Assembly: GCA_020722765.1 (NCBI GenBank)
Contig: DYKD01000004.1
Span: forward strand, 10,250 to 74,249
Direction: 5' to 3'
Length of the DNA: 64,000 nt
Source of the DNA: Brevinema andersonii
Lineage (GTDB): Bacteria; Spirochaetota; DYKD01
Shown here: in pieces, positions 44 to 21,718 of the stretch
How positions within the stretch are numbered: the first letter of the stretch is position 1
Layout: every line of letters starts with the position of its first letter
Made by a program: the position numbers and the translations under genes
Notes under the pieces: model-generated
Told to the model about the DNA's origin: nothing
The model's input: only the letters and a program-made list of their open reading frames with translations
Databases searched by the model: none

Positions 44-250
44 CTATTTCCTGAAAGTCAAGAACCTTTTAACCGCGTGATAATCGGCTTCAGACCAAAA
101 ATAACGCTGAATCGCAAACGCTAGCAATGCCACTTGGACAGAAATTACAACCTCACCGACAGAAGCCACGCCAAAAGTGAATGCAGTGAGAACACCGATC
201 GGAAATAGAAAAGTTATTGCCATAACTAAAATAGCATGTGGGACTCTCAT
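44..250 (-). CDS. Small membrane protein downstream of tape measure gene
   Basis: 68 aa, two hydrophobic stretches; start overlaps the tape measure stop (TAATG coupling). Confidence 0.6.
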   Translation of the reverse strand: MRVPHAILVMAITFLFPIGVLTAFTFGVASVGEVVISVQVALLAFAIQRYFWSEADYHAVKRFLTFRK

Positions 251-3200: not shown

Positions 3201-6200
3201 TCTCTAATGTACCGGTGAGCATTTCGCCTAATCTGTGAATGGGATCTTCTAACTTACTCGCGAAATCAGATAGGCCTTTCACCATCCCCCACCAGAAAGC
3301 GTCGCCAAGGGTCTTGATTGTTTCTTGATCTTTGATCATGCCAGCAGCAGCTCTGGACCAATTGGCATAAATCTTGGTGATCTCGATGTCAGCAATCGAA
3401 CCAATCGCTTTCCAAATATCTGCTGCAGTGGCTCCAAACATCGCCATGTGTTCCTGCAATTCGCTTAATTGCCGTTTAGTAGTTTCATGGCGCTGTGCTT
3501 GCATTTCATAAAATTTTGCGATGTTGTCGAAGGCTTCCTTCATGGTGAGGCCAGGAATCTTCGCCATCATCCTAATCAATGAATCAAACTGTTCAGGCCT
3601 CAGTTCGAATCCTGACGTGAGCGCTTCTTTAATAGCCTGCTCAAAGGTCTTGGCAATTTTATATGGGATACCGCCTTGCAGCCATTTAGTACCCAAAGCC
3701 ATTAACTTTTCATAGAATAACTCAAACAACTCAAAATTGGTTTCGATTTGTGTCTTTAAACGAGTAGGAGATAGAACATCGGAGAAAAGATAGTTGTAAA
3801 ACTTAGTCATTGATACGCCAGGCTTGGTCGCTAAATAGTCCAGCATCTTGAGCATGTCTTCGAAGTTTTGAACCGTCCAGTTCCTTTCGTCTTCGAACAT
3901 GGTCTTTCCGATCTCGAGCATTTCCTTACGGATCTTCGCATAGGAAACCTTTTGCTTCAAGAGAATGGACACATACAAATCAACAACTTGCTTATCAATG
4001 ATTGCACCAGTTTCTAGTAAGGCCTTTAAGGGCTCGGTGAGCATTTTGAAAAAGTCTGCTCTGGGTAGTTTGACCCTTAACCATACGTCAAACAACCTGC
4101 TGATGCTATCTTCAAACTGCTTAATCTCAGCTGGCTGTAAACGATTGTCACGGATTAAGCCATAGAAATCTGTAATCGCTTTTTTGACATATTCAGCACC
4201 TGGGCGACCTCTTCCAATCATCTCTACAATTTTTGCGTACCAAGCGTCAAACCCCTCCCAAACAATTGAAGGGACAACTTCGTGTTCAGCAGGGATTCTG
4301 ATACGCAAATCTCTGGGTATTTTAACCCCAGTACGAAATTGTAAAAACGCTTTCTTTACTTTTTCTAAATGCTTCAATGTGGAAGCCGGAATTTTCCCGA
4401 GCTTAACTCTATCAAGCCCAGCATTATATGCAGCTACAACCTTCATAAGCTTTTGCCAGGTTTCTTCATTGATGCCCTCAAGCTGGCTCAAATCAATACC
4501 TAATGCACGCATTAAGTCCAGCGTATGTCGAATAGCAATCTTAGTAGCTAACGCCCGGTTTTCAAAACCTTCAAGTTGTTCCGCCTTAACTCCGTACATT
4601 GCAGCGGTACTAGGCATAAATTGAAATGGGCCTCTTTCTCCCGATGTGCCGACTCTGCGAGGATTAAAACCACTCTCCACTTGTTCCATCGCCAACATCA
4701 ATGCGGTAAACGTTTCGCCATATGTCGAAGCTTGACGCACGGTTTCGTCAATCATAGCTTTAAGTTGTGTGCGTGTAACTGACGACATCGTGTGCAACAT
4801 CGACTGATAACGATTGAAGAAATCGCCTTGAGACTGAACAGCATCAGCGGCCCCTTGACGAAGGAGGTGCGTCCTGATCTCTAAATTCTTGCCCATAAAC
4901 TCGGTTATCGCATTTTCCATCTCCCTGTCTATCTGCATTAACTGGTTTTTCTTCGAAGCGACTTCATTGGCAAGCTCTGCGCTTCTCTTCCGTAGTTCAG
5001 CTTCTCTGTTTCTTAATTCAGCTGTCGGTCGTATACCTTCTTGTATCTCTTGCTCAAGGACTTGCCACTTAATGCGAATCTCTTCTTGTTCGAGTTTAGC
5101 CCTTTCTTCTGCTAGTTTGATTTCCTCGCGCACAGCAGCCTTCTTCCGTTCATATGCTGCACGTACCCGATCGACATCCGCGAGCTCACCACGTGCAAGC
5201 TTTGCACGCTCTTCTTCAATAACACTACTTGCCTCGGTTGTTTTTGTTTGTGCACTTAGTCGTTGTGATTCAATGTCGAGCAAATCAGCCGTATGAGACA
5301 TCCGGAACAATTTCGCCTGCTCTTCACCTTGTTGAATGGCCAGATTCAATTGCTCGTAATGGTTTTTAATCAACTTTACGCGAAGCTCATTGCGCGCCTG
5401 TTCCTCTTTGAGCTTCCTAGTCGCATCATCAGCGTGCATTGTAGTAAGTTTGGAAAGTTGATGGTAATATTCACGCTGCAAATTAATTTCTTCTTGTCTT
5501 AATTGCTCTCTCTTTAATAAGTATTGTCTTTGGGTGTCAAGTCTGAATTGCTCGGCGGTTGGAGGTGCGATCTTATAACTTAATTCCGTTTCTTTAGCTA
5601 AGTTCTCAATGTAACTTTTACGATATTCCGTCTCAGTTTTAAGAGCCTCCATAGCTGCGTCTGCAATCTCGCGGACCTTCTTGTCGGTCAAGGTCTTGTC
5701 AACCTTAATTCCCATCGACGCGAGAACGCTTTCAGCCATACCTGGGATTCTCATCTCAAAGAGGCCCTTAGCAAGACCCTCTCTGGCTCGCTTAACTTGT
5801 TCGTTGTCAGCCAAATTAAGAGTTCTAAACCAATCAGCGACTTCTGCGGGAACCAACTGTAGCAGTAAGTCGCGATTACCTTGTAACTGAATCAGGAACT
5901 CCTTACTATCAAAAATCTTAGCTCCTATTTCACCCCATTTCATACCATAAAGGTTAGGAGCAGCTAATTCCTCTCTGAGTTTGTCTTGTAAGGCCTTGAA
6001 AATCTTAACGTCTCCCCAATCTTGCTTCTGCCACGCCTCAACTTGTGCTCTCATTGGATTGGCGATCAGACTGCTCAATCTCCCAAAATACACATTTACT
6101 TCATTTGCTTGTGCAGCTCCAACGTCTTTAATCGCTTCGGTAATTAACTTCGTAGCTTCTAAATATTTCCGCTTTCCTTCTGCAGAGAGGGTTCTGGGGT

Positions 6201-9200
6201 CGATTTGCTCAAATAACTTCCTGCCCCAATCAGGGCCAAACTGTACGGCTCTAGTATCACCTAAATCAAAGAGATCCCAAATTGACTTCCCCTTCACCAT
6301 CCAATAAGCTTTCTGGTATGCTTTGGTGAGGTTCTCCATCGAGGACATGGTACGTGTTCTAGCTGCGACTAGAGCGTTACCATATAATTCTTCAAGCTCT
6401 TTGTTGTGAGCCGCAGCTTTTCCGATGCCCGCGTACATCGAAACCATGTTTCTCGAGAGTGTCAAGAATGTGGCATATTTTTCGCGCAAAGTTCCAACGG
6501 TAACCGCGTGATTTTCAACAGCTTTATCAGCCACACCCATCGTTGCGAGCCATTTGACCATCGCTTCACGCTGTTCTTCAGTAGCAACCTCCCTCGGGGC
6601 TCCTTTCGCGATAGCTGCTTCAACGGCTTCTTGCGCGGCTACGATTTCAGCGGTCGCGTGATACGCAGAAACCGCGCGTTGTTCAATTTTACCTAATTGC
6701 TCCGTGAACTTAGCAGTTGCACTTTCAGACTTCTCAACTATGCTATCAAGAGTCTCGCCCCAAGCATTTTTAATAGCCACAAACGCACCAACTATCACAG
6801 ACGCGATGATCATGAACTTACCGGCGGGAGTTAACCAGAATGCATACAGAGCTTGACCAAGAGATGCAAAACCACCAATCACCGCAGCAAATAACGCCTT
6901 CAACCCTGCAACAAGACCACCCACAGAAAACACAGCTAGCAATTTACCAATTTTTCCAAAAGCACCCGCAATCCCAGAAAGAAGTGATCCAATAGACCCT
7001 AGTTGGGCAGTTACTTTTGTAACAACTTTTGAAAATATATCCCAAGATCCCAGTTGACCAGAAACAAGCTTTAAAATGCCGAGGAGTGTAAACGCGTGCA
7101 GCGAGGCATTGATAAATGTCTGCACAAAACCTGGGAAAACTTCTCTTTCGCGCACCTCTCCTCGAATCTCTGTAAGAGGAGCTCCACGAAGCACACCTGT
7201 AATTATTGTAGTGCCCTTCTCCGCGATTTTGGAGAACTTTTCAATCACTCCGTCCATCATGTCCGCCATTGTTCTGACAAGACGGACGGTGGAGACCATA
7301 ACAGTGTGGACGACTGTAAATACGGGAAATAATGCAGATTGAATGAACGAAGCGATACGACGTATATTGGAAGCAACAGTTTGGGTCATTCTTGACGCCT
7401 GCTCTTCACCCGCCCCAACTGAAGCCATGCGTAACCTAGTGATTTCCGAATCAATTTTATCCATGTTGAGAAGTAACGGGGCGAGAGCACGTCCACCAAC
7501 CATGCCAAAGTCTTCGAAGATTCTACCCAATTCTTCGAAGCTTTTACCAGACGCTTTCACAATTTTGCTCATCTCTCGCAGCATATCCATAGCAGTCATC
7601 TTACGTACTTCAGGTCCTGCTAGCTTTTCATAAACTTTTAGGGGAATTCCCATATGCTCAGCAAGAAGTACAAATGACTGTGCGACTTCCAACGGCTGCT
7701 TCGCCATATGCTGTAAGACTTTAGCAAAGCCACGTCCTGCGCGAGAGCCCTTAACCATATTATCATTCATAATACCGATTAAGGCGGACAACTCGTAAAA
7801 ATTCAACCCTAAACTGTCAGCTGCGGCGATTGAGTAACGATAACTCTGATTTAATTCATTAATTTCAACCTGGTGGTCTTTAAACACTTGAGACATAACA
7901 TCTGAGATAATACGAAACTTGGTGGCCATCTCGATGTTCGGTTCAATAGAGTCTTTCAACACATTATAAAGACCGGCAACAATTTTTGTCGTCTCTCCAA
8001 CGTCACCCTCAGTAGCCCGAATTAAAGCCATCACTGGTTGTAGGGCGGCTAACGCCTCCTGTGCACTAAGTCCTGCGGAACCTAACTGGTACAGTGACTC
8101 GGCTGCAAACTTCGCGTCAACACCAAATCTAACCATCCCCTCAAAAATAGCATGCCTCGCGAGCCCTTCCAACCTTTCGTAGTTCGTAACAATCTCGCCG
8201 GACTGTTCACGCATCGTACGGACCGCTCTTTCAATTTGATGCTGTGCTTCCACAAGGTTATTGAAAGTTTCAGTTACCTTATTAAAGATGCCCCAGAAGA
8301 GCATCATTGATGTATACCATCTTACTTGATACAGGAACAGATCGGCAAAATTGTCCTTTGCGGTTCTAACGGCGTTAGTCATTCTTTCCCACAAAGAAAG
8401 AACGTTACTCGTTACCGTTTCAGATTCCCTCATTAAGCCCGACAATTTTCTAACTTCCGCAGCATTCGCTTCAGCGTCACGTGTTGTCGCGGCATAAATC
8501 TTACGGGCTCGTTCTAACGCGTTACGCATCTCCTCATAAAAAGCTACTCTAGCGGTACGTTCCGCAAAAATCCCCCTCCTACCTAACATCTCGGGAGATG
8601 TTGCTTTTTCGATTAAACGCGACAGTTCATCAGAAATACCGTGGATGCTATCTCTCGCTCTCTGAGACTGTTGGACCCATTTAACATCCCAATCAAGGAG
8701 TGCGACTTTCCTAGTCTCTGAATCTAACTTTTCGAAAACGCCTTTAAGAAATGTGTATTGTTCTTCCAAACTCGCGCCAGTTTTAGGAGCTCGAATGCCC
8801 AGATTAAACAATTCATTGATTCTTGAAAATGTCTCTATCAAAGCGGGAATCTCTTGTTCATTGATCCGACTTCTAAATACCGCAAGTTGTTCCCGGAGTA
8901 AGGCAAGCCCTTGGGTTATATCACCTCCAAAAAGCTTTACGAGGATATCTTGAGCTGTAGCAATGGGCTGCTTGACTCTCGCAAACATTCCGCCTTCTGC
9001 GGCACCTGTTGTGCGCCAAGCAGCTCCAACTAAAGACTGAATAGCAATTTCCCGCGCGCTAGCTAAGGTTTCACGAACTGTTTCACGACCCCCCGAAATA
9101 GCTGGACCTAAGCCCTTCCTCATAGCGAGGTCGGCTTCTCTCCACTTGGCGCCTAATTGCTCGAGTGCCGCTAGCTCACGGCTATGAATATCAGCTAACA

Positions 9201-12200
9201 AGAGTTCATCGGTTGCAACGGCGTTAATTGTGCGGTGATAGTCTGAAACGACGCCTCTTAAAGCACCGAAGATGTTGACAAGCCCTGACTGGGCAGTGGC
9301 TAACTCCTCGGCGCTCAATGCCCCTGATTTTATCTCCGCAAAGGTAGCTTCAATGTTTAACATCATGCCTTGAATTTCAGACCACAGTTCGGCAAATGAG
9401 CGAACAGGTTGGCCTCCTGTCTTAATGGCTTCTTCGTTAAACTTAGCAACCTTCTGATCCAGATCTTCGGTTGTATAACCTACATGTTTGAGACTGTTTA
9501 GTATTTGGTCGATGTTTTGTTTAGCTGCAGCTAAAAATTGGGGATAGATTGCTAATGGTTCGCCCGCCCTTTTAGCAGAATGACCAAAAACTTGTAAGTT
9601 ATTGTTTAATTCTACAAATGCATCTACAATGGTCCGTGTGGCACGCTGTGGACCTTCACCAAATTCACCGCCACCAACACTACCCATCAATTTAGAGGTG
9701 ATAGCTCCAGCTTTTTGACCAATCTCACTCTCACCACTAGATAATGCGGTCGCAACACCTCGTACACCCTCTACAACTTTTTCCTTTTGTTCGAGGAGTT
9801 TTTGTAGTTTGACGGCCGTTAATTCATCAAACGTTTTAGCAACCGCTGGTTTCGTAGTGGCAATAGTAGATTCAATGCCTGCGACTTCCTCTTCAGCTGA
9901 CACTAAGGCCTCTTCCTTTCCGGGCACGACTTTCGCAGGCTCTTTGGCTCTTCCTGGAGCAGCGGCGACCTTCAAGCGTTGACGCGATTCAGCTTCTACA
10001 CGTCTACTATACGCCCTCTCTAAAATTTCTTCGTAACGAGAGAGTTTATCTAATGCTGCGATGGCTGGAGTGATTTCGGCGATCGACGCTTGTAGGTCGA
10101 TAACACCCCCAGCTGCAGGGACTGCACTCCTAGCAATGGTTTCAGAGTGAGTTCTTATCTTCCTCTTAACAAGATCAAGAACACTTTGAATTTTTGATGC
10201 TGACCATGACTCGACGCGTTTCGACCACCGTTGAAAGAATTCTCCCATTCCAGTTTCGATGTCACGAACTTCCAACATCGACCTAAATGCACCCTTCATT
10301 CCACCAGCTGAAAGTATTTCTCCTTCTGGTTGAGCGAGATATGAAGGTGCTGCTAAAGGTTTACCCCAAGCAAGAGAGGAGAATTCGCCTTGCGCGACAA
10401 TGCCGCGTGCTTCCCTAACTCGGGCTTCTAGTACTTGTGAGAGCTTTTCGTTTAACCTGTTAGTAGCAGCTCTTACAAAGCTCACATACTTCTCACCAAA
10501 ACCCGATTGCTCAACTTCTTTTAAATATTGTATGCTAGCCTGTTGAATTTGTTGGATTTTACTACCCGAAAGCTTTGCGATCCAGGATTGTGTACCACCT
10601 ACTTCACTGCCAAACAAGATTTGACCAACACCTTTTGACAGAAACCCTTCCTTCGAAATGTCGACTGGAAGTTTCATCATTTCCTTGAAAGCGGAGTAAA
10701 CTACCTGCGGATCCTCTGATAATAGGGCGGTGCGGATCGTCCTGCCAAACTCTCGGAAATGACCGCGCAGTGTTTTCTTGGCACTGTCCATCAACAAGTC
10801 TAATCTTGCAGCAAGTTCGGCTTGCCCCACATCAGTCTCAGCCATACCAGATTTAACAGATTTGCGGAAGATCTCAAAGGACTGTGCGGTTACTTCAGCG
10901 TTAAGTTTTGCCTGCTGTAACGCAAGATTAATTCCCGCTGTCTTTGGGTGTGCAGCGTCACCAGCTGCTACTATCGCGACTCTCAGCTTCTCCATCAATT
11001 CGGCTAGTTTTTGCACAGAACCTAAAGCGGGTTGAAAGAATCTGTGGGTTGCCTCCGGAGCGTCTTTAAGGGACTTGAGTGCGAAGTTCATTGCAGCAGC
11101 AAAATTTTTGGTGTAATTAGCCGCTCGCTCAATTAATTCAAAACGGCCAGTCCCAAACATTTCTGCTACTGTAAGCTGTTTTTCAGGTTTAGGTGGGAGA
11201 AGGATTTCTGTGTACTCGCGCGCGAATTCAGGACCTTCAGGGATAAAAGCTCTTCGGCCAATTTTACGCGACATGGTCGTCATCCATGCATCAAAAGACA
11301 TTGCGACATCTTCGGCAGATGGTGGCGTGAAGAGCCTACGAATTAAATCTGGTAGCGTACCAGTTGGGGGTTGTACAGACTTACCAATTAAACTGGTCAT
11401 GTAGTCACCCCAGTCCTGATATGCCTTTTTAAGGCTTTCTATCGCTGGGATGTGTGCGCCATAAATACGAGCAACGTATTTATCGTATTCGGCCCGATGT
11501 TTTTCAAATCTAATTGATTCAGTGGCTGGAAGCCCAAACTCTACACCTTCAGCAGCAAGTCGGACTAATTCGTGACTCTTGTTGAGCATAAACTGGACAT
11601 TGCGACCAGCGTCGCCCGCAGCTCTACTATACTGAGTCATTCTAGATGCTAACTCACTGAGGGCTTGAGCGACATTAAAAAATTTCCACATTGGCATCAA
11701 ACTTGTGTGAAGTTTAGCAAGGGCTTCGGTCGCGCGCTCTACATTAAACTCACGGGTGAACGCAGCTCTAACAGCCGTCTTGTATTCCTCAATAATTGGA
11801 GCTGGAGTAGTAGCGGTAACACCTGGCCGCTCCCCGATTGCTAAAAGTTGAGCTTCTACTTTTTCTATTTTTTCGGGTGTACTTTTGGGTGTAAGTCGTC
11901 TGCGTATCTTCCGTGCCTCGGCTTGAGCTTCTTCCACTCCGACACCAAATTTCTTTAAGACTGTGAAGGCTTGTTTAAGTTGTGTGGTGTCAACACGAAA
12001 ATCTAACCTAAGTCCTTTTTCAAACTCAGATTTTACCTTTCTGAATTCGTTCCTTAACTTTTCAAGACCTGCAACGTCTTCTTTCTTTCCATAGGCGGTC
12101 ATCTTCAGTAGTTGTTGGTCGATCTGCTCCAAAGCGGATTGAGTCTCGCTTAGACTACTAACAGTGATTTCTTTCTTCAAGACGTCTTCGAGCTGCTGCA

Positions 12201-14745
12201 TAAACGGACGTAACCTAAACACAGCAGCAAATTGAGCGGCTTCACGGTTTACTTTCGTAAAACCTTCTCCCATTGCGCTAGTGACCGCGGCAAGCTTATC
12301 TAAATGAGATTCTAGCGCTGGCGCATTCTTAATGGGTTCCGCACCAAAGGCACTTAAATATTCAGGCGTTTTGCCAACCAAAGATTCGAAGCGGGTGAAA
12401 AACGCACCTTGTTTGAATGCGTCGAAGAACTGATTTACACGCTCGGTTGCAAACTTAAAAGTGTCCACTACAGGTTGTACGAATTTTGCAGACTCTCCAA
12501 ACCGTTTCATATCAAGGTGTGCCTGAGCGACAGCGTTTGCTAATTCCCTTTTAACATAACCGGTAGCATTGTCGATTTGAGTTTGTAAGTCTTTGGTGAA
12601 TTCATAGAACTCAGGACCAGCAGTGATCTTCTCGCCTCTCTTTATAGTGCTTACTTGAGCTAGGATTTCTTGCGCAGAAGGAACTTGTCCGGGTTGAGCT
12701 GCTCCCCTCCACAAGTGTATGAATTTTTCAATTCTATCGTGGAGTACATCTATACCCTCACCAATTGTGCTCCACCCTTGATAAGTCCTTTTTTGAGCTG
12801 CTCCGACCACATCAAGCGCCGAAGCTGTCTCCATAAGAGTATGGAGAAACTGTTCGGAGGGTACTCTTCTACCAGCAAATATAGCATCAAATATCTCGGT
12901 GCCGAACTCAGTCTCTAAGTAATCACGGAATTGTGCGCCCTCAGCCCCAAAAACTTGCTCAAACGAAGTGAAGGTTTTCTTAATGCGATCCGAGAAGGCA
13001 GCAGTTGGTGGTTCTTCGATAGGAGGCAAAATTGTAATGCCCTCTTTTTTAGCCTCTTTGAGTTGTAGGGCTTTTTGCCGTGCCTCACTTAACTGGGCGA
13101 CAGTCTGGCCTAATTTACCTACTAATGCGACCTGTCTCGCGTATGGTTTTTCTAAACTGGAAATGGCTTGCTCTTCTTTTGAAGCTAACGTGGTGATTTC
13201 AGCGACCATCCCATGTAATTCATCAACGCCTTTGCGCAGCTGACTTATGTACGTGGTAAGCTCTTGTACCCTTAAGGGACGCAAATCAATAGCCCCAGCT
13301 TTAGCAGGAACTTCAGCAATTTCTCGCTTAAGTCGTTGCAGTTCAGTTGTTGCAAAGTGCAACGGCGCTCTAATTTTCTCCTCTTCAGCTGGAATTAAAG
13401 TTTTGGTGATTCGTTCACGGGCTTTCGTCAGCCTACTTAGGGCTTCGGAATGGCGGATGAACTCTTGAGATAAAGTAAACATCGCTTCCTTTTCTCGTTC
13501 AAGGGCCCGTTGTTTCGCCCGTAACGACCGGGTGATAGCTCCAATGGGTTTACTTTCTAACTGTGAAACCTCAAGTGTCGCTGCAGGTTCAGCTGGAATA
13601 CTTTCGGTAATTGATGCAAATTTAGTTTTAAGCTCTTTAACCTTAGCTGCAACGTTGCTCAACCGTTTTACTGTAGCATCAATTTCACTTTGAAACGCGG
13701 GACTACCAATAGCTGCTTTTTGTAGCAAACTCAAAGTTTGAGGGCTTTCAAAGACGGGCAAAATTCCTTTTTCAAGGACAGACCGAAGTTCGTTTCTCAA
13801 CGTTTCAAGGTCTTTCTTGCGTTGCACTAATTCCCTAGCAGCTTGCTGATAACCTTTACTACCTTTTGTGGTCTCAATGAAAACCTGGAGTCCTTTCTCG
13901 CTGATTTGAGGAATGCGTTCTGCGATTTGGGCTTCAAATCGCTCAACGTCACGCAAGAACACGTCTTGCATCTTATTAAGCTGTTCCTGCCATTTGGGCA
14001 ACCACGCGACTATATCTCTTTCAGAAGTAAACCGCGGTAATAACGGTTGCGTTCCTCCAGACAAGACACGGACGTGTTTGAAAAGCTTTTCTTCCAAAAC
14101 CTTATACAAATTAGAGGATTGAATTTTCGCTTCTAATTGTTGTGTCTGTGCTACAAACGTGTCCAGCTGGTGATATAGGCGGCCCATATCCCGTAGAGTA
14201 GTTTCTAAAGCCTCTCGTTCTTGCTTTAGTGAAGCGAGCTGTTCAAGTTGTTTAGCACCTCTTCGTGTAGTAGCGGGTCCTACTGTGGCAGCTGCACTTA
14301 GTGTTTTCTCGTACCTAGCTTGCTCCTTCTCAATCTGGCTTGCAAGTTCAGATACCTTACGCGCGACATTTTTGTAGGACTTCTCAATCGCAGCGGTTAC
14401 TTGCGTAGACACTGTTTGAGAAGTGCGAAGCATGCTAAGCATGCCTTTTTCGACTTCTTTAATGTGGTTAAGGGTATAAGTGAGTGACTGAGTGATCCCC
14501 GTTTGAGGGATTTGTACCTTTGTGGAGAAGTTAACGAGACTTTGCAGCCTTTTTTCAACTTCGCCGATAACTGAAATGCTTTTTTCGAAGGTGGCAGGTG
14601 TGAGAGCAGTCCCCAGATGCCCAGATAAAGATTTACTGATTTTTTGGAAAGTTGTGTTAAGACGAGACTCCGTATCAGCGGCCCGTTTTAACAGGTCGTT
14701 GAATGGAGTAAAATCGATATCTAACTTAAATCGCAGGTCTGCCAT
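250..14745 (-). CDS. Giant tape measure protein (4831 aa) with TP901-type core, lytic transglycosylase and zincin-like domains
   Basis: Follows tail tube and chaperones; helical Ala/Glu/Lys-rich; core AESLYQLGSAG...NMVKGSRAGRG; SLT motifs ESGFNP..GPFQFMPSTA..AAYNAG (~4350-4740); HETIH at 982-996; GTDSVPVWLTPGEYV and GDIVPAMLEPGEFVV motifs. Confidence 0.92.
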   Translation of the reverse strand: MADLRFKLDIDFTPFNDLLKRAADTESRLNTTFQKISKSLSGHLGTALTPATFEKSISVIGEVEKRLQSLVNFSTKVQIPQTGITQSLTYTLNHIKEVEKGMLSMLRTSQTVSTQVTAAIEKSYKNVARKVSELASQIEKEQARYEKTLSAAATVGPATTRRGAKQLEQLASLKQEREALETTLRDMGRLYHQLDTFVAQTQQLEAKIQSSNLYKVLEEKLFKHVRVLSGGTQPLLPRFTSERDIVAWLPKWQEQLNKMQDVFLRDVERFEAQIAERIPQISEKGLQVFIETTKGSKGYQQAARELVQRKKDLETLRNELRSVLEKGILPVFESPQTLSLLQKAAIGSPAFQSEIDATVKRLSNVAAKVKELKTKFASITESIPAEPAATLEVSQLESKPIGAITRSLRAKQRALEREKEAMFTLSQEFIRHSEALSRLTKARERITKTLIPAEEEKIRAPLHFATTELQRLKREIAEVPAKAGAIDLRPLRVQELTTYISQLRKGVDELHGMVAEITTLASKEEQAISSLEKPYARQVALVGKLGQTVAQLSEARQKALQLKEAKKEGITILPPIEEPPTAAFSDRIKKTFTSFEQVFGAEGAQFRDYLETEFGTEIFDAIFAGRRVPSEQFLHTLMETASALDVVGAAQKRTYQGWSTIGEGIDVLHDRIEKFIHLWRGAAQPGQVPSAQEILAQVSTIKRGEKITAGPEFYEFTKDLQTQIDNATGYVKRELANAVAQAHLDMKRFGESAKFVQPVVDTFKFATERVNQFFDAFKQGAFFTRFESLVGKTPEYLSAFGAEPIKNAPALESHLDKLAAVTSAMGEGFTKVNREAAQFAAVFRLRPFMQQLEDVLKKEITVSSLSETQSALEQIDQQLLKMTAYGKKEDVAGLEKLRNEFRKVKSEFEKGLRLDFRVDTTQLKQAFTVLKKFGVGVEEAQAEARKIRRRLTPKSTPEKIEKVEAQLLAIGERPGVTATTPAPIIEEYKTAVRAAFTREFNVERATEALAKLHTSLMPMWKFFNVAQALSELASRMTQYSRAAGDAGRNVQFMLNKSHELVRLAAEGVEFGLPATESIRFEKHRAEYDKYVARIYGAHIPAIESLKKAYQDWGDYMTSLIGKSVQPPTGTLPDLIRRLFTPPSAEDVAMSFDAWMTTMSRKIGRRAFIPEGPEFAREYTEILLPPKPEKQLTVAEMFGTGRFELIERAANYTKNFAAAMNFALKSLKDAPEATHRFFQPALGSVQKLAELMEKLRVAIVAAGDAAHPKTAGINLALQQAKLNAEVTAQSFEIFRKSVKSGMAETDVGQAELAARLDLLMDSAKKTLRGHFREFGRTIRTALLSEDPQVVYSAFKEMMKLPVDISKEGFLSKGVGQILFGSEVGGTQSWIAKLSGSKIQQIQQASIQYLKEVEQSGFGEKYVSFVRAATNRLNEKLSQVLEARVREARGIVAQGEFSSLAWGKPLAAPSYLAQPEGEILSAGGMKGAFRSMLEVRDIETGMGEFFQRWSKRVESWSASKIQSVLDLVKRKIRTHSETIARSAVPAAGGVIDLQASIAEITPAIAALDKLSRYEEILERAYSRRVEAESRQRLKVAAAPGRAKEPAKVVPGKEEALVSAEEEVAGIESTIATTKPAVAKTFDELTAVKLQKLLEQKEKVVEGVRGVATALSSGESEIGQKAGAITSKLMGSVGGGEFGEGPQRATRTIVDAFVELNNNLQVFGHSAKRAGEPLAIYPQFLAAAKQNIDQILNSLKHVGYTTEDLDQKVAKFNEEAIKTGGQPVRSFAELWSEIQGMMLNIEATFAEIKSGALSAEELATAQSGLVNIFGALRGVVSDYHRTINAVATDELLLADIHSRELAALEQLGAKWREADLAMRKGLGPAISGGRETVRETLASAREIAIQSLVGAAWRTTGAAEGGMFARVKQPIATAQDILVKLFGGDITQGLALLREQLAVFRSRINEQEIPALIETFSRINELFNLGIRAPKTGASLEEQYTFLKGVFEKLDSETRKVALLDWDVKWVQQSQRARDSIHGISDELSRLIEKATSPEMLGRRGIFAERTARVAFYEEMRNALERARKIYAATTRDAEANAAEVRKLSGLMRESETVTSNVLSLWERMTNAVRTAKDNFADLFLYQVRWYTSMMLFWGIFNKVTETFNNLVEAQHQIERAVRTMREQSGEIVTNYERLEGLARHAIFEGMVRFGVDAKFAAESLYQLGSAGLSAQEALAALQPVMALIRATEGDVGETTKIVAGLYNVLKDSIEPNIEMATKFRIISDVMSQVFKDHQVEINELNQSYRYSIAAADSLGLNFYELSALIGIMNDNMVKGSRAGRGFAKVLQHMAKQPLEVAQSFVLLAEHMGIPLKVYEKLAGPEVRKMTAMDMLREMSKIVKASGKSFEELGRIFEDFGMVGGRALAPLLLNMDKIDSEITRLRMASVGAGEEQASRMTQTVASNIRRIASFIQSALFPVFTVVHTVMVSTVRLVRTMADMMDGVIEKFSKIAEKGTTIITGVLRGAPLTEIRGEVREREVFPGFVQTFINASLHAFTLLGILKLVSGQLGSWDIFSKVVTKVTAQLGSIGSLLSGIAGAFGKIGKLLAVFSVGGLVAGLKALFAAVIGGFASLGQALYAFWLTPAGKFMIIASVIVGAFVAIKNAWGETLDSIVEKSESATAKFTEQLGKIEQRAVSAYHATAEIVAAQEAVEAAIAKGAPREVATEEQREAMVKWLATMGVADKAVENHAVTVGTLREKYATFLTLSRNMVSMYAGIGKAAAHNKELEELYGNALVAARTRTMSSMENLTKAYQKAYWMVKGKSIWDLFDLGDTRAVQFGPDWGRKLFEQIDPRTLSAEGKRKYLEATKLITEAIKDVGAAQANEVNVYFGRLSSLIANPMRAQVEAWQKQDWGDVKIFKALQDKLREELAAPNLYGMKWGEIGAKIFDSKEFLIQLQGNRDLLLQLVPAEVADWFRTLNLADNEQVKRAREGLAKGLFEMRIPGMAESVLASMGIKVDKTLTDKKVREIADAAMEALKTETEYRKSYIENLAKETELSYKIAPPTAEQFRLDTQRQYLLKREQLRQEEINLQREYYHQLSKLTTMHADDATRKLKEEQARNELRVKLIKNHYEQLNLAIQQGEEQAKLFRMSHTADLLDIESQRLSAQTKTTEASSVIEEERAKLARGELADVDRVRAAYERKKAAVREEIKLAEERAKLEQEEIRIKWQVLEQEIQEGIRPTAELRNREAELRKRSAELANEVASKKNQLMQIDREMENAITEFMGKNLEIRTHLLRQGAADAVQSQGDFFNRYQSMLHTMSSVTRTQLKAMIDETVRQASTYGETFTALMLAMEQVESGFNPRRVGTSGERGPFQFMPSTAAMYGVKAEQLEGFENRALATKIAIRHTLDLMRALGIDLSQLEGINEETWQKLMKVVAAYNAGLDRVKLGKIPASTLKHLEKVKKAFLQFRTGVKIPRDLRIRIPAEHEVVPSIVWEGFDAWYAKIVEMIGRGRPGAEYVKKAITDFYGLIRDNRLQPAEIKQFEDSISRLFDVWLRVKLPRADFFKMLTEPLKALLETGAIIDKQVVDLYVSILLKQKVSYAKIRKEMLEIGKTMFEDERNWTVQNFEDMLKMLDYLATKPGVSMTKFYNYLFSDVLSPTRLKTQIETNFELFELFYEKLMALGTKWLQGGIPYKIAKTFEQAIKEALTSGFELRPEQFDSLIRMMAKIPGLTMKEAFDNIAKFYEMQAQRHETTKRQLSELQEHMAMFGATAADIWKAIGSIADIEITKIYANWSRAAAGMIKDQETIKTLGDAFWWGMVKGLSDFASKLEDPIHRLGEMLTGTLESMRGTLEDVFTDFALHRLKDPQEYINKLAEGLARMAARNLSELAMEQVTGGIASLLGIPPEMISKEYAEKQAKLEDKQYKLESLAYQRATAENTAGILSAMGGGPAIPGVSGLEGGLGVEGEGGIAGVAESLEELETGGGGVRSPSIGRSTFGGMPSRTFGGAPGGIPSETPGGLFGGLFSGGFFSGIFNFIKGIISFIPSLLGLFGGMSRPTYGGASLGFSPFGFSPMGMQTGGFVKGSGGTDSVPVWLTPGEYVLSLPVVKKLQEGGLALGDLFEGTLELPIEDLFGGFFEEFSEGLEEQLEPLYELFKPHAGIGQGYYGPGFQQYASWSDWFNQTVAAEAQRKHQEWLQKELANAQEVAQGYAQRAALAGQFWKGLFSFPFQVFFQKGGLIGEALTSRGFPAWPGQVTTAEPIVKKTKTTWPWWMLALTYMSMFSSLLSMFKQMQRPKPTMATGKVGPAASTLYPNIDLLQRNGSFWDEIFTEPFDAETILGKGTLGLPEMGLSELGLPKLELGLPKESFSLWDKIKGFFGFGPLAGGAGSYGGMGMASGAGAAMGAGGGGGFFSSIGNFFSSIFSGIGSFFSGIFSFFRGMQHGGLVENILDWFGPTEAWAIEPLNILPELEKTWNLELAEASPEVRSYIEEAKTGIRRAAEFFQENNPAATTYIAEALGRTDRFKDPREYLKSSISPGSYYIPESDQIVMQLQGSKFPAREFIAEREPAGIQSQFANVLIHETIHSLQESGRPLAGFLPVIDSAKVKAYLEKTFPQSPAEYIEYLASPEEVMARGVAHYLTKRIYPEFKDIFAGGTWPEEYDALMRELADAVATGKYPAAPKLGPIQWLIWQWKKPFQIGGPVPGTGRGDIVPAMLEPGEFVVNRPTVSFFGPDFFYALQDLVKFQGAAPEKVLSGVAPVKMQMKTGGTVPKVTIPTPAVSPELKMTVVNVLDEESIEQFLGSKKYGDVFVNKLGARFNRRVLGSRGV

Positions 14746-15848: not shown

Positions 15849-18287
15849 TTAGCTGGCCGTTTTTTCAACAACCACTTTGAATAGTTGTTTACCAACTTCC
15901 AGTGTGTTGCCACCCCAGTCTTTGCAAGTGCGAGTAGAGTTATCCCACGGAACCATAGCGTTAAAGGTGTAAGGCAGTTTGTGGTGAGTGTCACCGAAGT
16001 TAAACTCAACCGCGCCATCACCTTGCGCTTGCCAGATGTACACATTAATGGTCCAACCATACGGGGTTTGGTGCACGAGCTTCAGCGCAACGTTGCTGAA
16101 CGAGATCTGTCCGCCGAAATCGAGGATTTCGGTGTTGGACGCCGAAGAAGTAATGCCCGCACCCAATGCGTACATCAGGTTGTTGACGTTCCATTCGCAT
16201 TCTGGACTGTTGCATCACCCTTTTATAGGGCGTTCCCACACTCAGTCTCTGCAAGTGAGCCGAAAGTCTCACGAAATCTCGAAAAGATCTTGCCTTTAAT
16301 GTCCTGACGCCGCCTCCCCAAAGGCAACGCAAGAATTAAGTCTGCTTGAGATCTTTGCTGGCCCTCTAAATGGTCGTAAACTGCTTCTAGGATTCTTTTC
16401 ACTTTACGTCCTTTAACATAACGCGCTGGCTGATCCAAGATCCCAAAAACATCTGAAGCCGATTCAAGGCGGAGAACTGGGGTGATATGTGGATTACCTG
16501 CTCCATTAGTCAACCTCCAAATAGAAAGTTTCCCATTCCGCACGACTTCATATAAAGCTTGAGGGTCGATTTTCGTGATACTTGAAACAATCTTCGACTC
16601 TTCTTGAGCGTTGGCATCCAGATGAAAATCATACTTCCACTTATAAGCAAAGCACTTAAAAACGGGTTGTCCCATCCATTCAAGAAAATCACGAATGTAT
16701 TCGTTTGCAATATCAGTTTGAAACATGGAGCCCTTCCACAGCTGCTTTCTTGCTTGAATTCCATGGTTTTTTAATTGCAGAACGATGCGGTCAACATCGT
16801 CTTCACTAAACCCGTGGGTACAAATAGCGCAAGCATTTTTTGAAATCCACCCATCACCACAATATGCCACGTTAGCAACTAAAGGGGTAAGGTTGAAATC
16901 TTTCGGTAAACACTTGTGGCTATTTTCATCGTACCAACGTTTACGAAACTCAGCAAGAACCGACTTGTTGTATGCTTCCAATTGGTAAACTGTTTTGCCT
17001 ACAGAAAACCCGTCTTTCTGAGGAGCGATGCAAGCGTAAGTTTTCCATCCTAAGTCAGTGAAAAACTCACGCACTTCCTCAAAATACTGCTTATGAGTAG
17101 TTGCAAAACGTACTTGAGGAGAAGGCATCTTTGTGACATGAATGTCGCTAAAAATTAGTCCTTCTAAGATCTCAAAAGCACGTTGTTCCATTTTCATCCT
17201 TTTGCGTTCGCCATTAATTAGTGGAAATTAACTTTTCTAACGCTTTCCAGCGTAGCGGGACCGAATGTTCAATCCCGGAGATTTTCAGGGTCGCTGTTTC
17301 CTGTGTCGCAAATTGCGCAATTAAGGTTTTAGGTGATGTAAATTGTTGAAATCATTAACAATTTACTTTGTTACCGTAGGTCTTTTAATCCCCTACTTCT
17401 GCACATTTCTGTGCAGCCCAGACTATATCTTCCCTTTCGGGGGCGGTGCTCGTGTCCGGCTTATTGGTTTCCTGGTCCTCACCGGTTAGTCGTTGAACCT
17501 TCTCTTCTACAGTGTTCAGGATTCGAAGAGCTCGGCTGCTGATTGCCCTCGGCTTCACGTTAGGGTGTTCCAGCAATTCTCCGCCTTTTTTTGACCGAGG
17601 CTGAAATTTGTACTCCACACCTTTGAAAAAGGACTTTCCCAAATAAGGAAGTAAACCCTCTAAAACTTGATACATTTTTTCGTTCATTTTCAACCTCGGG
17701 GGATTCCCAAAATAATTAAAATCCCTGAAATCAAGTGTGTTACCCTAGGAGCTCTTTATCTCCTAGTTCTGTACATTACTGTACAGTTCAGACTATGTCT
17801 TTCCCGTCTCCTCGGGAGGCGGCACTCGTGGGAGTAATTACTGCCATATCTTTCGACTTAGGCTCGACTCCTAGTCGTTGAACCTTCCAGAGAGTTTCCC
17901 CTCTAGCTTGGCTGCACGTTGTCCTTTGGCCGGGATTCATTATCAATTCCAAAGGATGTTCATGCAATTCACCGCCTTCATTCTTCATCACTGCATTAAC
18001 TGGAGAACAGTGATGCGATGCCACGTGTTCCTTGAAACCCCACTTATACGCCATTACTGTTCCTTTCAGTCATTTTGTTTTTGTTGTTGTTTGTTGGCGT
18101 TTAAAAAGTGTAATGATTTCAAGAAGTTATTTTTAACATCCTCCTTAGTTCGAGTGGATGATAGGACTGCTCCGGACTCTACTGCCCCTACGTCGACGGT
18201 GGGCGTTGTGCCAGAAGGTCCGATGTAAAGAACACACGGACCAATCGACATACGGTTTGTGTCGAATTGTGGCAGATTGTAGGGCAT
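15849..18287 (-). CDS. Major tail (tube) protein, spliced; exons 18136-18287, ~17719-17731, ~17272-17333, 15849-16197 (about 191 aa)
   Basis: Joining gives one open frame of 576 nt: ...TRTKEDV/FQG(F or S)/PKTLIAQFATQETATLKISGI/EWNVNNLMYALGAG...; lies between tail terminator and chaperones. Confidence 0.85.
16198..17271 (-). mobile_element. Group I intron 3 of tail tube gene, carries LAGLIDADG ORF
   Basis: P1 CGGGAU/GUCCCG with U.G at the 5' splice site; P10 CAUUCG/CGAAUG; P3 UUUCCAC/GUGGGAA; P7 GACUG/CAGUC; terminal G at 16198. Confidence 0.88.
16223..17197 (-). CDS. Intron-encoded LAGLIDADG homing endonuclease or maturase
   Basis: Motifs ILEGLIFSD and VANVAYCGDG, plus LTP and ICTHGFS typical of the LAGLIDADG_2 type; first motif lacks the DG glycine. 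Confidence 0.8.
   Translation of the reverse strand: MKMEQRAFEILEGLIFSDIHVTKMPSPQVRFATTHKQYFEEVREFFTDLGWKTYACIAPQKDGFSVGKTVYQLEAYNKSVLAEFRKRWYDENSHKCLPKDFNLTPLVANVAYCGDGWISKNACAICTHGFSEDDVDRIVLQLKNHGIQARKQLWKGSMFQTDIANEYIRDFLEWMGQPVFKCFAYKWKYDFHLDANAQEESKIVSSITKIDPQALYEVVRNGKLSIWRLTNGAGNPHITPVLRLESASDVFGILDQPARYVKGRKVKRILEAVYDHLEGQQRSQADLILALPLGRRRQDIKGKIFSRFRETFGSLAETECGNAL
17334..17718 (-). mobile_element. Group I intron 2 of tail tube gene (boundaries +/- 3 nt)
   Basis: P1 GGGAUUU/GAAUCCC; P2 CCGAGGUUGAAA/UUUCAGCCUCGG; P AAUUGCUGGAA; Q AAUCAGCAGCC; R GUUCAACGACUA; S AAGAUAUAGUCUG; P9 CUGCACA-GAAA-UGUGCAG. Confidence 0.85.
17732..18135 (-). mobile_element. Group I intron 1 of tail tube gene
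   Basis: P3 AGGCGG/CCGCCU; P AAUUGCAUGAA; Q CGUGCAGCC; R GUUCAACGACUA; S AAGACAUAGUCUG; P9 CUGUACA-GUAA-UGUACAG; 5' exon ends GAUGU, which can pair with GCAUC at 18017-18021; terminal G at 17732. Confidence 0.85.
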
Positions 18288-18374: not shown

Positions 18375-18572
18375 TTATTGTTGCTGTTGTGTGAGGCTGC
18401 ACTGTTTTCCGCACTTGCGACATAAAGTCACTACACGTTGAGCTTCTTCGATGAACACGTAGTGGTCTTTATATTTCATGCGTAGTACTTTAAGGTCGGA
18501 GGTTAGATAACCCAATATAGCCTCGCAGCTAGGGCACCTCCAAGGTAGGTCTTTAACTTCATGATCGCTCAT
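18375..18572 (-). CDS. Small zinc-ribbon protein (Mu Com-like pattern)
   Basis: WRCPSCEAILG...LCRKCGK, 65 aa. Confidence 0.6.
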   Translation of the reverse strand: MSDHEVKDLPWRCPSCEAILGYLTSDLKVLRMKYKDHYVFIEEAQRVVTLCRKCGKQCSLTQQQQ

Positions 18573-18999: not shown

Positions 19000-19343
19000 T
19001 CACTAAACGGGTCCCCTATTTTATCCAACGCTCTCTCGAACACAGGATGTGGTTTAATGTACCTAGTACCACGAATGACATATTTTGCGTGAGGTGCAAC
19101 CTTTTCATCAAAGTATACCTCACATGAAATACCATCTGGGCTGGCTTCGAGTTTGGTCTTTAATGAATTACGCAACCTACCCGTCTTGAAACCCAACACT
19201 TCTTCAGACTGTTTCACAGAAGAAGTGCCGAGCATTCTTTTGACTGTGTCAACATAACGTTTTGCCCATTGATGCCCGCGTGCAGCTAAATTGCGCGCGT
19301 GCACTGTAATTTCGGCTTCGAGTTGCTTTGTGAATTCACTCAT
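18996..19343 (-). CDS. Neck protein, HK97 gp10-like
   Basis: KTGRLRNS...APHAKYVIRGTRYIKPHPVFERA. Confidence 0.8.
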   Translation of the reverse strand: MSEFTKQLEAEITVHARNLAARGHQWAKRYVDTVKRMLGTSSVKQSEEVLGFKTGRLRNSLKTKLEASPDGISCEVYFDEKVAPHAKYVIRGTRYIKPHPVFERALDKIGDPFSE

Positions 19344-21718
19344 CTTTTATTCGTTTTCCTTAATTTCTTTGTAAGCTCAGTTGTTGTTGCAGAGGTTAGA
19401 AAAGGTGGAAACATCAACGTTTCGTCTGGCACCAGCTTACGCAAAATGTTTTTCACCTCATTCACTGGCCTATACAATGGATGTCCTTCTGGGACATCCT
19501 GGGCGCTGCTCTCAAACAGAGCGCGTGAAAACCTCAAATACATTTTTGCGAGCTCGATTTTCGCGAGCGTGAACTTTGAATAAAGATTGACAGCTTTTTC
19601 CAAATGTTCAACCGCCGCTTTAGTGTCGCCCATTTCCGAGTAATGGAGCGCCAAGTTGAAATACGGTTTAGGGTCCCTTGGGTCCCTATGCATAGCTCTT
19701 TTGTTAAGCTTAATGTAGTATTTAAGCTTGTCTTGCAGTCGCTCTGTTAAGAACCCAAAATGGTTGATGACACCTTTCGCGCGAATTATCTGCCGGTTGC
19801 GAATCTTGCCGATAGAGTCCTCGATAGTTTCATGAATCAAACCCGAAAAATAAATGTCGGGACGATTTTGGTATAAACGCATAACTTCTGTAAAAACATC
19901 AGGCCTATTCTTCTGGACGTTGTTGACGTTGAACATTGCCGCGGTTGGATGTGACTCGACCATAAATGTAATTTCAGGAGGTGATGAATACATTTCATCA
20001 ACATCCATCACCCAGATGTAGGCGCTCGTTGATTTTCTTGCGAGCCAGTTACGCATATCAGAATAATCTTCGGTCCATTCACGTTCAAAAATTTTGGCAC
20101 CCCACCGCTTTAACACGTCAACCGCTTCAGAACCAGGAGCAACACGTACTACTATCTCATCAGCGACAGTAGCATGACTTTCTAAGAAGATTTGCACTTT
20201 GTGTGAAGGTTCGTGTTCAGTCATAATATTCAAACTAACTGTGTACTTATCTGAACCCTGCCACTCAGATATAAGAATATTGTTTTGGTTGGTTAAATGT
20301 GAGTAATCTGTTCCTCCCACTAACTCCACAACCGGGTTCGGATCAAGAGCTTCATAGTACCGCCTTTTCTTCTCCCTAAGATCAGGGTCTATATATCCAT
20401 AATGAAGGATGTGAACGTTTACTGGCGCGGAACTAACTGCGGGAATATTTGGGACCCTACTGCAATGCAGGGAGGTCCCAGGCGTTCCCCTAAAATACTT
20501 CATGTTAGGTAGCACTTTAACCATGAAGACCGCTGATGCGGGTGGATAATTCACATGGTATGTATTTGGTGAATTCCACAAATGGATAAATCTACCGACA
20601 AATGCGTAAACTCCAGGAATTGGAGTATTTGCGAGTCGTTGCAAGTATTCCCTAGTGACCTTTTCCTCGAGAAACTCGTCATGATCAAGTACAACCATCC
20701 ACTCCACACCCTGCTTGAATGATATCTCATACAGTTTTGCGCGCTGATCAACTTCGACCTCATCGGACATTAAAGTGTAAGTGAATTTACCTGGGTAATT
20801 TTCTTGCAGCCAACCTTCCATATCCCAACCGCTGTCATCATCAACGATATTGATGATGTCGAAAAGAGAAGCGTGACGCTTCATCCACGCTTCGAGCTGC
20901 TCACGGCTACATTTAACACGAGTATTTCCTGAGATTGAGCGTTCTTTAAACTCACCACAACATTTCTCAACAACTTGCAATCTATTGTAAGTGCCAGAGT
21001 CCATAGAGTCTTGCAAAGATTTCGAGCCGTGATGGAAGACAAACGTGCTTCTGTCGACAAAACATGAGTAACCCATTTGGTTTACTCGTGCACATAAATC
21101 TACGTCCTCATTCCCATTTACAAAGCGTTCATCAAACCCACCAAGCTTCTCCCATATATCTCTACGAATCATGAAACAAAATCCTGAAACAACACCAGCG
21201 TAAATCCACTTTCCGATATTCTCCGCGTGCACACGTTCCGCGAATTCATCAAGTGCATCAAGCGGTATTGGGGAATCTGCTTTTACCAATTGATGAGACA
21301 TAACGTAGTTACTACACGGCGCTACAATCGCAGGCTCAGGCGCGGGTCTATCTGGATCCTTCAACAAGGTTTCATAACAACGAATCAGCTGCTTCAGCCA
21401 CTTCTTAGGCACTCGAGTGTCATTATTGAGCACTACAATAAACTCACCTTTCGCAAACGACGCGCCCATATTAACGTTGGCCGCATAATGTGTATGTCCT
21501 GTGGTGTTATGAATAAACCTAAAATTTGCGTACGTTTGGTCCCAAGCTTCCATCGCAACAACTGTGCCGTCGTCAACGTCGCCTCCAGTACCACACACAA
21601 TAATTTCAAATACAACATCCTCGGTTTTATGTAATGTGTTAAGCAATTCCGTAGTGTATTGCAGTCCTCCATGAACAGGAATGACAATGGAAACTTTGGG
21701 ATTCATATATTCCTCCAA
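19340..21718 (-). CDS. Multi-domain GT2 glycosyltransferase with C-terminal TPR
   Basis: Three GT-A-like units (VSIVIPVH..LNNDT..GGFDE..EDVD; LDHDE..HYGY; WVMDVDE..IHE..HFGF) then TPR-like DPKPYFNLALHY. Confidence 0.85.
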   Translation of the reverse strand: MEEYMNPKVSIVIPVHGGLQYTTELLNTLHKTEDVVFEIIVCGTGGDVDDGTVVAMEAWDQTYANFRFIHNTTGHTHYAANVNMGASFAKGEFIVVLNNDTRVPKKWLKQLIRCYETLLKDPDRPAPEPAIVAPCSNYVMSHQLVKADSPIPLDALDEFAERVHAENIGKWIYAGVVSGFCFMIRRDIWEKLGGFDERFVNGNEDVDLCARVNQMGYSCFVDRSTFVFHHGSKSLQDSMDSGTYNRLQVVEKCCGEFKERSISGNTRVKCSREQLEAWMKRHASLFDIINIVDDDSGWDMEGWLQENYPGKFTYTLMSDEVEVDQRAKLYEISFKQGVEWMVVLDHDEFLEEKVTREYLQRLANTPIPGVYAFVGRFIHLWNSPNTYHVNYPPASAVFMVKVLPNMKYFRGTPGTSLHCSRVPNIPAVSSAPVNVHILHYGYIDPDLREKKRRYYEALDPNPVVELVGGTDYSHLTNQNNILISEWQGSDKYTVSLNIMTEHEPSHKVQIFLESHATVADEIVVRVAPGSEAVDVLKRWGAKIFEREWTEDYSDMRNWLARKSTSAYIWVMDVDEMYSSPPEITFMVESHPTAAMFNVNNVQKNRPDVFTEVMRLYQNRPDIYFSGLIHETIEDSIGKIRNRQIIRAKGVINHFGFLTERLQDKLKYYIKLNKRAMHRDPRDPKPYFNLALHYSEMGDTKAAVEHLEKAVNLYSKFTLAKIELAKMYLRFSRALFESSAQDVPEGHPLYRPVNEVKNILRKLVPDETLMFPPFLTSATTTELTKKLRKTNKR

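Follow-up and report, generated by a model that had tools for sequence, protein, structure and literature searches.

How does a phage make its tail tube when the gene for it is present only in pieces? This question is raised by the window, the whole 64,000-nucleotide (nt) stretch analysed here (contig DYKD01000004.1 of assembly GCA_020722765.1, Brevinema andersonii, positions 10,250 to 74,249 of the forward strand). On the minus strand of the window, from 18287 to 15849, lies a tail tube gene that the list of open reading frames (ORFs) gives only as fragments of 73 amino acids (aa; 18066-18287), 108 aa (15849-16175) and 324 aa (16223-17197). An earlier note on this DNA had already remarked that no ORF in the track spans the gene, and had read the locus as a tube gene split by three group I introns. 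We find that the gene consists of four exons and three inserts, and we consider it likely that three selfish group I introns have inserted themselves into the tube gene of an uncultured phage of the siphovirus type.

The joined exons and their uninterrupted relatives

18136..18287, minus strand: exon 1, 152 nt; codons 1-50 and two bases of codon 51; aligned to residues 1-51 in homologues P0002-P0010
17732..18135, minus strand: intron 1, 404 nt, group I, without an intact ORF; last base G17732
17719..17731, minus strand: exon 2, a micro-exon of 13 nt; final base of codon 51 and codons 52-55 (F-Q-G-F)
17334..17718, minus strand: intron 2, 385 nt, group I; first codon an in-frame TAA; last base A17334
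17272..17333, minus strand: exon 3, 62 nt; codons 56-75 and two bases of codon 76
16198..17271, minus strand: intron 3, 1074 nt, group I by splice-site anatomy, without an Rfam match; last base G16198
15849..16197, minus strand: exon 4, 349 nt; from the final base of codon 76 through the stop; 63-84% identity to P0002-P0010

The exon borders were set by collinearity with uninterrupted homologues, independently of any splice-site pairing. Joined by script, the exons sum to 576 nt and give a product of 191 aa (191 codons), exactly the frame that the earlier note had assembled from pieces of 152, 13, 62 and 349 nt. A search with 115 residues of the last gene piece retrieved nine uninterrupted metagenomic homologues of 188-197 aa. 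The spliced product is 66.5-84.7% identical to these nine with no gap at any junction, and the joined exons align base for base with the DNA of 12 intronless loci, again without a junction gap. The collinearity that had been proposed as a check is thus present at all junctions, in proteins and in DNA. The insertion points lie in codon 51 (intron 1), between codons 55 and 56 (intron 2) and in codon 76 (intron 3), and all three introns are confined to 75 nt of coding sequence, as the earlier note had estimated.

Uninterrupted tube genes are found in 16 of the 18 related loci, over residues 1-184 or more, while the other two are cut by contig ends. The 34 distant loci comprise 27 contiguous genes, one gene split by introns (L059) and six (L052-L056, L060) whose tube matches lack the first 15-29 residues. 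No Rfam match at the gathering score was obtained for L052, L055 and L060, and these six loci possibly hold further introns or divergent starts. Searched with a profile, a set of 1.84 billion representatives yielded 195 relatives at E≤0.001. Among 50,697 phage records, tblastn with exon 4 retrieved nothing, and blastn with the whole region retrieved only intron core blocks of 50-115 nt. A tube-profile scan of the genome contigs confirmed no relative. In three database fragments, available as proteins only (P0151, P0153 and P0141), the match ends at residue 76-77 or begins at 76. Judged from their sequences, these breaks at the site of intron 3 hint that more split alleles may exist elsewhere. 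Four other relatives (P0011, P0012, P0013, P0024) carry an in-frame insert of about 180 aa near residue 98, which looks like a surface decoration domain.

The identity of the product was assessed from its fold and from the position of its gene. An AlphaFold2 model of homologue P0002, which is 85% identical, reached a predicted local distance difference test (pLDDT) score of 90.7 with a 96-sequence alignment; an earlier model from nine sequences only had a score of 35.1. Foldseek returned 22 PDB matches at E≤0.001, of which the best is 9n71_A, the Mystique tail tube (E 1.5e-8), and further top matches are the siphophage tail tube proteins of YSD1, Chi, lambda (V) and SPP1. BFVD contributed 101 matches at E≤0.001, and those that carry a name are major tail or tail tube proteins. 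A Pfam scan of the tube protein revealed no family, a profile search against PDB sequences returned nothing, and the sole PHROG match, to phrog_2175, is weak (3.8e-7). The gene order is TerL, portal, protease, major head, adaptor, tail completion, tube gene, two small ORFs and a 4831-aa tape measure, which places the tube gene between the head-tail connector genes and the chaperones and tape measure, the position of a tail tube gene. The predicted fold and the gene position support a siphophage tail tube (major tail) protein as the product, and the tail tube assignment of the earlier note is borne out. The intron sites fall within a long β-hairpin (residues 41-75; strands 41-53 and 58-75) and a Q-G-x-P turn, which are the most conserved part of the tube family.

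In the source bin the tube gene occurs as exon pieces only, together with a 39% identical paralogue downstream of the tape measure. The check for an intact tube gene elsewhere, which the earlier note had listed, yielded no second copy in the bin apart from this paralogue, an intact protein of 186 aa encoded outside the window (G000:C72:6117-6677, minus strand; locus L009 1450-2010). We considered the paralogue as a spare tube gene and rejected this role. The virus record G002 has an orthologue of it (51%) at the same relative place, about 19 kb from an intact tube gene. Since G002 retains it beside an intact tube gene, we regard the paralogue as a separate tail part.

Ribozyme cores, splice sites and the intron 3 endonuclease

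The Rfam group I model RF00028, with a gathering score of 50 bits, finds two cores in the gene. The intron 1 core matches at 18016-17769 (65.5 bits, E 2.3e-14) and the intron 2 core at 17639-17399 (65.1 bits), both above the gathering score, and nothing else appeared even at E≤10 across 2.6 kb of the region. The fold of intron 1 has a z-score of -6.1 against shuffles. Its P1 pairs 18140-18134 with 18023-18017, has U18136.G at the splice site and holds a long internal hairpin between its strands. P1 of intron 2 comprises 7 base pairs (bp) between 17725-17719 and 17706-17700, with a U.G at the splice site, and is present in the centroid fold; its 5' strand is formed by the last 7 nt of exon 2. 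The adjoining guide, 17712-17707, pairs 5 of 6 with the first bases of exon 3. The shuffle test for P1 and P10 of intron 2 is weak, with 1,056 of 100,000 shuffles as good. Neither intron 1 nor intron 2 has a working endonuclease gene, and the two introns are related. One stretch of intron 2 resembles the start of the intron 3 endonuclease described below.

17630..17693, minus strand: what may be left of the start of an endonuclease ORF, in the intron 2 P2 loop, from protein and DNA alignment; tentative

It is identical to the N-terminus of that enzyme at 7 of 15 positions and similar at 13 of 15 (E 0.002 in a single comparison). Intron 2 may tentatively be said to keep the first 15 codons of a related endonuclease ORF.

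Intron 3 is a different ribozyme from introns 1 and 2. Its P1 pairs 17277-17269 with 17264-17256 over 6-9 bp and has a U.G at the splice site. Its P10 pairs 17267-17262 with exon 4 bases 16197-16192 at 6 of 6 positions and is contiguous with P1. When the first 45 nt of the intron were shuffled, only 2 of 100,000 shuffles matched this contiguous arrangement. With its terminal G (G16198), intron 3 thus shows a P1 with U.G, a P10 and the last base of a group I intron. The synonymous codons GGG (G75) and ATC (I76) are exactly those that create these P1 and P10 pairs, and they occur in the intron-bearing allele only, whereas all 12 intronless loci use GGT, GGC or GGA, and ATT. The interior of the intron contains an endonuclease ORF and a proposed core.

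16223..17197, minus strand: LAGLIDADG homing endonuclease ORF, 324 aa, inside intron 3; Pfam and PHROG profiles
16204..16272, minus strand: putative 3' half of the intron 3 core, hand-built by eye against the RF00028 consensus; no P9
Parts of this hand-built core, minus strand: P6 hairpin 16272-16255; J6/7 and P7 16254-16243; P3' 16242-16234; P8 16231-16217; J8/7 and P7' 16216-16204

The ORF matches Pfam LAGLIDADG_2 (PF03161) over residues 9-152 (E 2.7e-12, 47.4 bits against a cut-off of 25) and PHROG 11023 over residues 1-188 (E 1.2e-25). A search of a 5.8-billion-protein set found no close relative and returned the query itself only. Viral contigs searched with protein patterns and with exact and degenerate DNA patterns gave no relatives of this endonuclease or of the introns. 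Because it carries a LAGLIDADG endonuclease, intron 3 may still be mobile. The last ~115 nt of the ORF overlap the proposed 3' half of the ribozyme. A free fold recovers P6, P8 and part of P7 of the hand-built core. The model is tentative, since a free-energy fold of intron 3 minus the ORF did not recover the full group I topology.

Several observations weigh against a gene interrupted by three functional group I introns. P1 of intron 1 has 5-7 bp over a 108-nt loop and is, taken alone, not above chance (2,516 of 20,000 shuffles). Insert 3 gave no RF00028 match at E≤10, either in the 2.6-kb region or in the 331 nt at its 3' end. Of the three group I cores claimed by the earlier note, those of introns 1 and 2 are therefore supported by the covariance model and that of insert 3 is not; the core motifs quoted there occur twice and not three times, and insert 3 has a looser form of them (16254-16243 and 16216-16204). 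Intron 3 also appears to lack P9 in a core model that is itself hand-built. No relative with an intron at these three sites was found, and there is therefore no covariation. Finally, intron 2 does not have the terminal G of a group I intron. It ends in A17334, which went unnoticed in the earlier note. The 3' junction cannot slide, and the nearest upstream G is G17353, 19 nt away. The P7 strands of intron 2 are identical to those of intron 1, so that no altered G-binding site is visible. In the literature, the terminal G of group I introns is said to be conserved universally and to be indispensable for the second step of splicing (PMC6545197). We infer that all three introns splice in vivo, although the terminal A makes this doubtful for intron 2.

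Other readings of the inserts

If the terminal G is essential for the second step, as that source states, A17334 would block exon ligation. The gene as assembled would then be broken or mis-sequenced, either as a defective copy or through an assembly or variant error for G. This fits an intron that has lost its endonuclease ORF and looks degenerate, and a sequence that comes from a metagenome bin. We nevertheless think it unlikely, as all other large ORFs of the module are intact, including the 4831-aa tape measure, and in intron 2 both the 7-bp P1 and the P10 guide match precisely the junction set by collinearity. The hexacoral ND5-717 intron, which like intron 2 has no terminal G, also ligates its exons in vivo (PMC6545197). 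Unlike intron 2, ND5-717 is organellar, giant, back-spliced and probably dependent on host factors, and does not come from a phage.

Introns 1 and 2 are further connected by a complementary arm and by a repeat.

18111..18129, minus strand: 5' arm in intron 1, complementary to two downstream places
17334..17357, minus strand: 3' end of intron 2, a look-alike of the intron 1 3' splice site and exon 2, with G17353 followed by a 19-nt pseudo-exon; intron-intron alignment

The arm is complementary at 17 of 19 positions to 17357-17339, at the 3' end of intron 2, a value that none of 300 shuffles reaches. It is also complementary at 12 of 15 positions to 17733-17719, which comprises the 3' splice site of intron 1 and exon 2. 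Over its final 24 nt, intron 2 aligns with this same splice site and exon as a direct repeat (80%), and its 3' end holds a decayed exon 2 copy. It is conceivable, at a low level of confidence, that in intron 2 a phage has a natural group I intron able to ligate exons without a terminal G, and that the 17/19 helix couples introns 1 and 2 and the 13-nt exon into one folding and splicing unit, possibly with two in-frame outcomes.

A different use of the same elements would treat introns 1 and 2 as a single unit. Exon 1 would be ligated after G17353, exon 2 and intron 2 would be skipped, and an in-frame product two residues longer would be made, alone or beside the four-exon product. The 17/19 complementarity between the 5' arm of intron 1 and the intron 2 3' end spans G17353, the frame is kept when exon 1 is joined after this base, and the paired similar introns of Twort orf142 skip an exon and have been modelled as a single large ribozyme (PMC10136302). 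However, the skipped product would exchange the Q-G-x-P turn, in which, among 96 family members, G is kept in 95, P in 93 and the turn length in 95. The consensus is exact in exon 2, whereas the look-alike has decayed, and the 17/19 helix would pair the very G that must be free for docking. Skipping is on these grounds quite improbable. We take exon 2 to be a real exon, because skipping to G17353 would destroy this conserved turn.

Insert 3 could also be an endonuclease gene cassette rather than a ribozyme, with the N- and C-terminal parts of the tube made as separate polypeptides. The missing Rfam match would agree with this, as would an ORF that fills 975 of the 1074 nt of the insert. Against a cassette, a U.G P1, a contiguous 6-bp P10 and a terminal G coincide exactly with the borders drawn from collinearity, and the insert contains segments resembling the conserved J6/7-P7 and J8/7-P7'. 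Moreover, at residue 76 exon 4 offers neither a start codon nor a ribosome site; translation from its first ATG in frame would give only the 108-aa fragment. We therefore give this explanation very little credence. An intein was rejected, since the exon frame meets a stop 19 codons into the insert, and so was a group II intron, since there is no reverse transcriptase; the first bases of insert 3 are also not like those that we take to be typical of group II introns.

Group I introns in tail tube genes

Introns are also found elsewhere in this phage group. The distant tube homologue of L059 (3750-5170) is split by two group I introns at sites that differ from those in the window. The first lies inside codon 4-5 and scores 91 bits with Rfam; the second follows codon 28, carries an HNH ORF and matches Rfam in two pieces of 24.9 and 18.4 bits. 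Both end in a terminal G. In the bin of the window, a fourth group I intron was observed on a second phage-like contig (G000:C145:32276-32862, plus strand; RF00028, 65.1 bits). It splits an AAA-ATPase-like ORF (locus L061 ~1777-2363), with an HNH endonuclease ORF at L061 2033-2395, and this contig may belong to the same phage genome.

We propose that three selfish group I introns invaded the tube gene in the most conserved part of the protein. After transcription each ribozyme would excise itself, and ligation of the exons would yield a 576-nt messenger RNA and from it the 191-aa tube protein. The clustering of the introns would most likely result from homing enzymes and guide sequences that target conserved DNA, rather than from regulation. 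Intron-free relatives, and different introns at different sites in L059, form a pattern typical of selfish mobile elements. The earlier note had suggested instead that tail assembly could be gated, in timing or quality, by the need to splice three times. This idea finds no support, as nothing in this sequence argues for it, 16 of the 18 close relatives manage without any intron and L059 has different introns elsewhere in the gene; it is extremely unlikely. The sole link in its favour is a paper on phage T4, whose title connects splicing with translation and growth state.

The triple-intron tail tube gene is a kind known since 1999, when the introns of Twort orf142 were reportedly described by Landthaler and Shub; the window provides a further example and not a new kind. 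Orf142 is a tail tube gene with three group I introns, a 23-nt exon and exon skipping (PMC10136302, PMC11878797), and the Twort record gives three RF00028 matches (16606-16892, 16973-17197 and 17248-17506) directly after the sheath gene. Both genes encode a tail tube and contain three close group I introns, including two similar ones that flank a very short exon. In contrast, the tube of Twort, a myovirus, belongs to an unrelated family, the insertion sites differ, and the Twort introns share only core blocks of 17-20 nt with those of the window. In the window the micro-exon has 13 nt and not 23, the third intron carries a LAGLIDADG ORF and one intron lacks the terminal G. A group I intron is also described in the tail tube gene of prophages of Bacillus weihenstephanensis KBAB4 as well as B. 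cereus B4264 (PMC2504315). This case, likened here by its description, has one intron where the window gene has three. The same survey reports that many introns begin with, or soon reach, a stop codon, and intron 2 likewise opens with one. With orf142, the Bacillus prophages and L059, the rarity of introns in structural genes was overstated in the earlier note.

Multiple introns are known from other genes as well. The DNA polymerase and terminase genes of Bastillevirinae contain two or three group I introns each, with partial Rfam matches split by endonuclease ORFs and with exon skipping seen by nanopore sequencing (PMC11878797). The authors of that work found introns in DNA metabolism and packaging genes only, in contrast to the tube gene of the window. 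In the 23S ribosomal RNA (rRNA) of Coxiella burnetii, two group I introns flank a 34-nt exon that is subject to skipping (PMC10136302). Unlike the window, this is an rRNA gene with introns of different subgroups and a longer exon than the 13 nt found here. By the coordinates given in PMC4853749, two 23S rRNA introns of unstated class would lie 14 nt apart. We do not claim the 13-nt exon as the shortest between group I introns, and no search was aimed at this point.

Other features of the module were noted. The tape measure ORF (window 250-14745, minus strand) is exceptionally long at 4831 aa, which implies a very long tail. The large terminase ORF (window 30809-33322, minus strand) has 837 aa, of which the terminase profile covers residues 434-829 only. 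Its residues 119-433 match Pfam Intein_splicing at E 5.4e-4, below the cut-off, and the insert in this ORF is probably an intein. A 792-aa protein with glycosyltransferase matches is encoded between the adaptor and tail-completion genes (window 19340-21718, minus strand). Directly ahead of the tube gene, both in the window (18375-18572, minus strand) and in L059 (3414-3746), lies a small ORF with four cysteines that resembles a zinc ribbon.

The locus adds a clean second case in which a strongly expressed virion gene relies on three ribozymes, and both its phage lineage and its tube family are unrelated to those of Twort. Intron 1 has the 13-nt exon as its entire 3' target, and intron 2 uses the same exon as its P1 substrate. 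The arrangement thus provides a small natural test system for how exon skipping is avoided or exploited by tandem group I introns. Both the missing terminal G of intron 2 and the helix bridging introns 1 and 2 are of experimental interest. If intron 2 does splice with a terminal A, it would be an exception to a near-universal rule, and one outside organelles. Together with L059, the window suggests that tube genes in this phage group have been invaded repeatedly.

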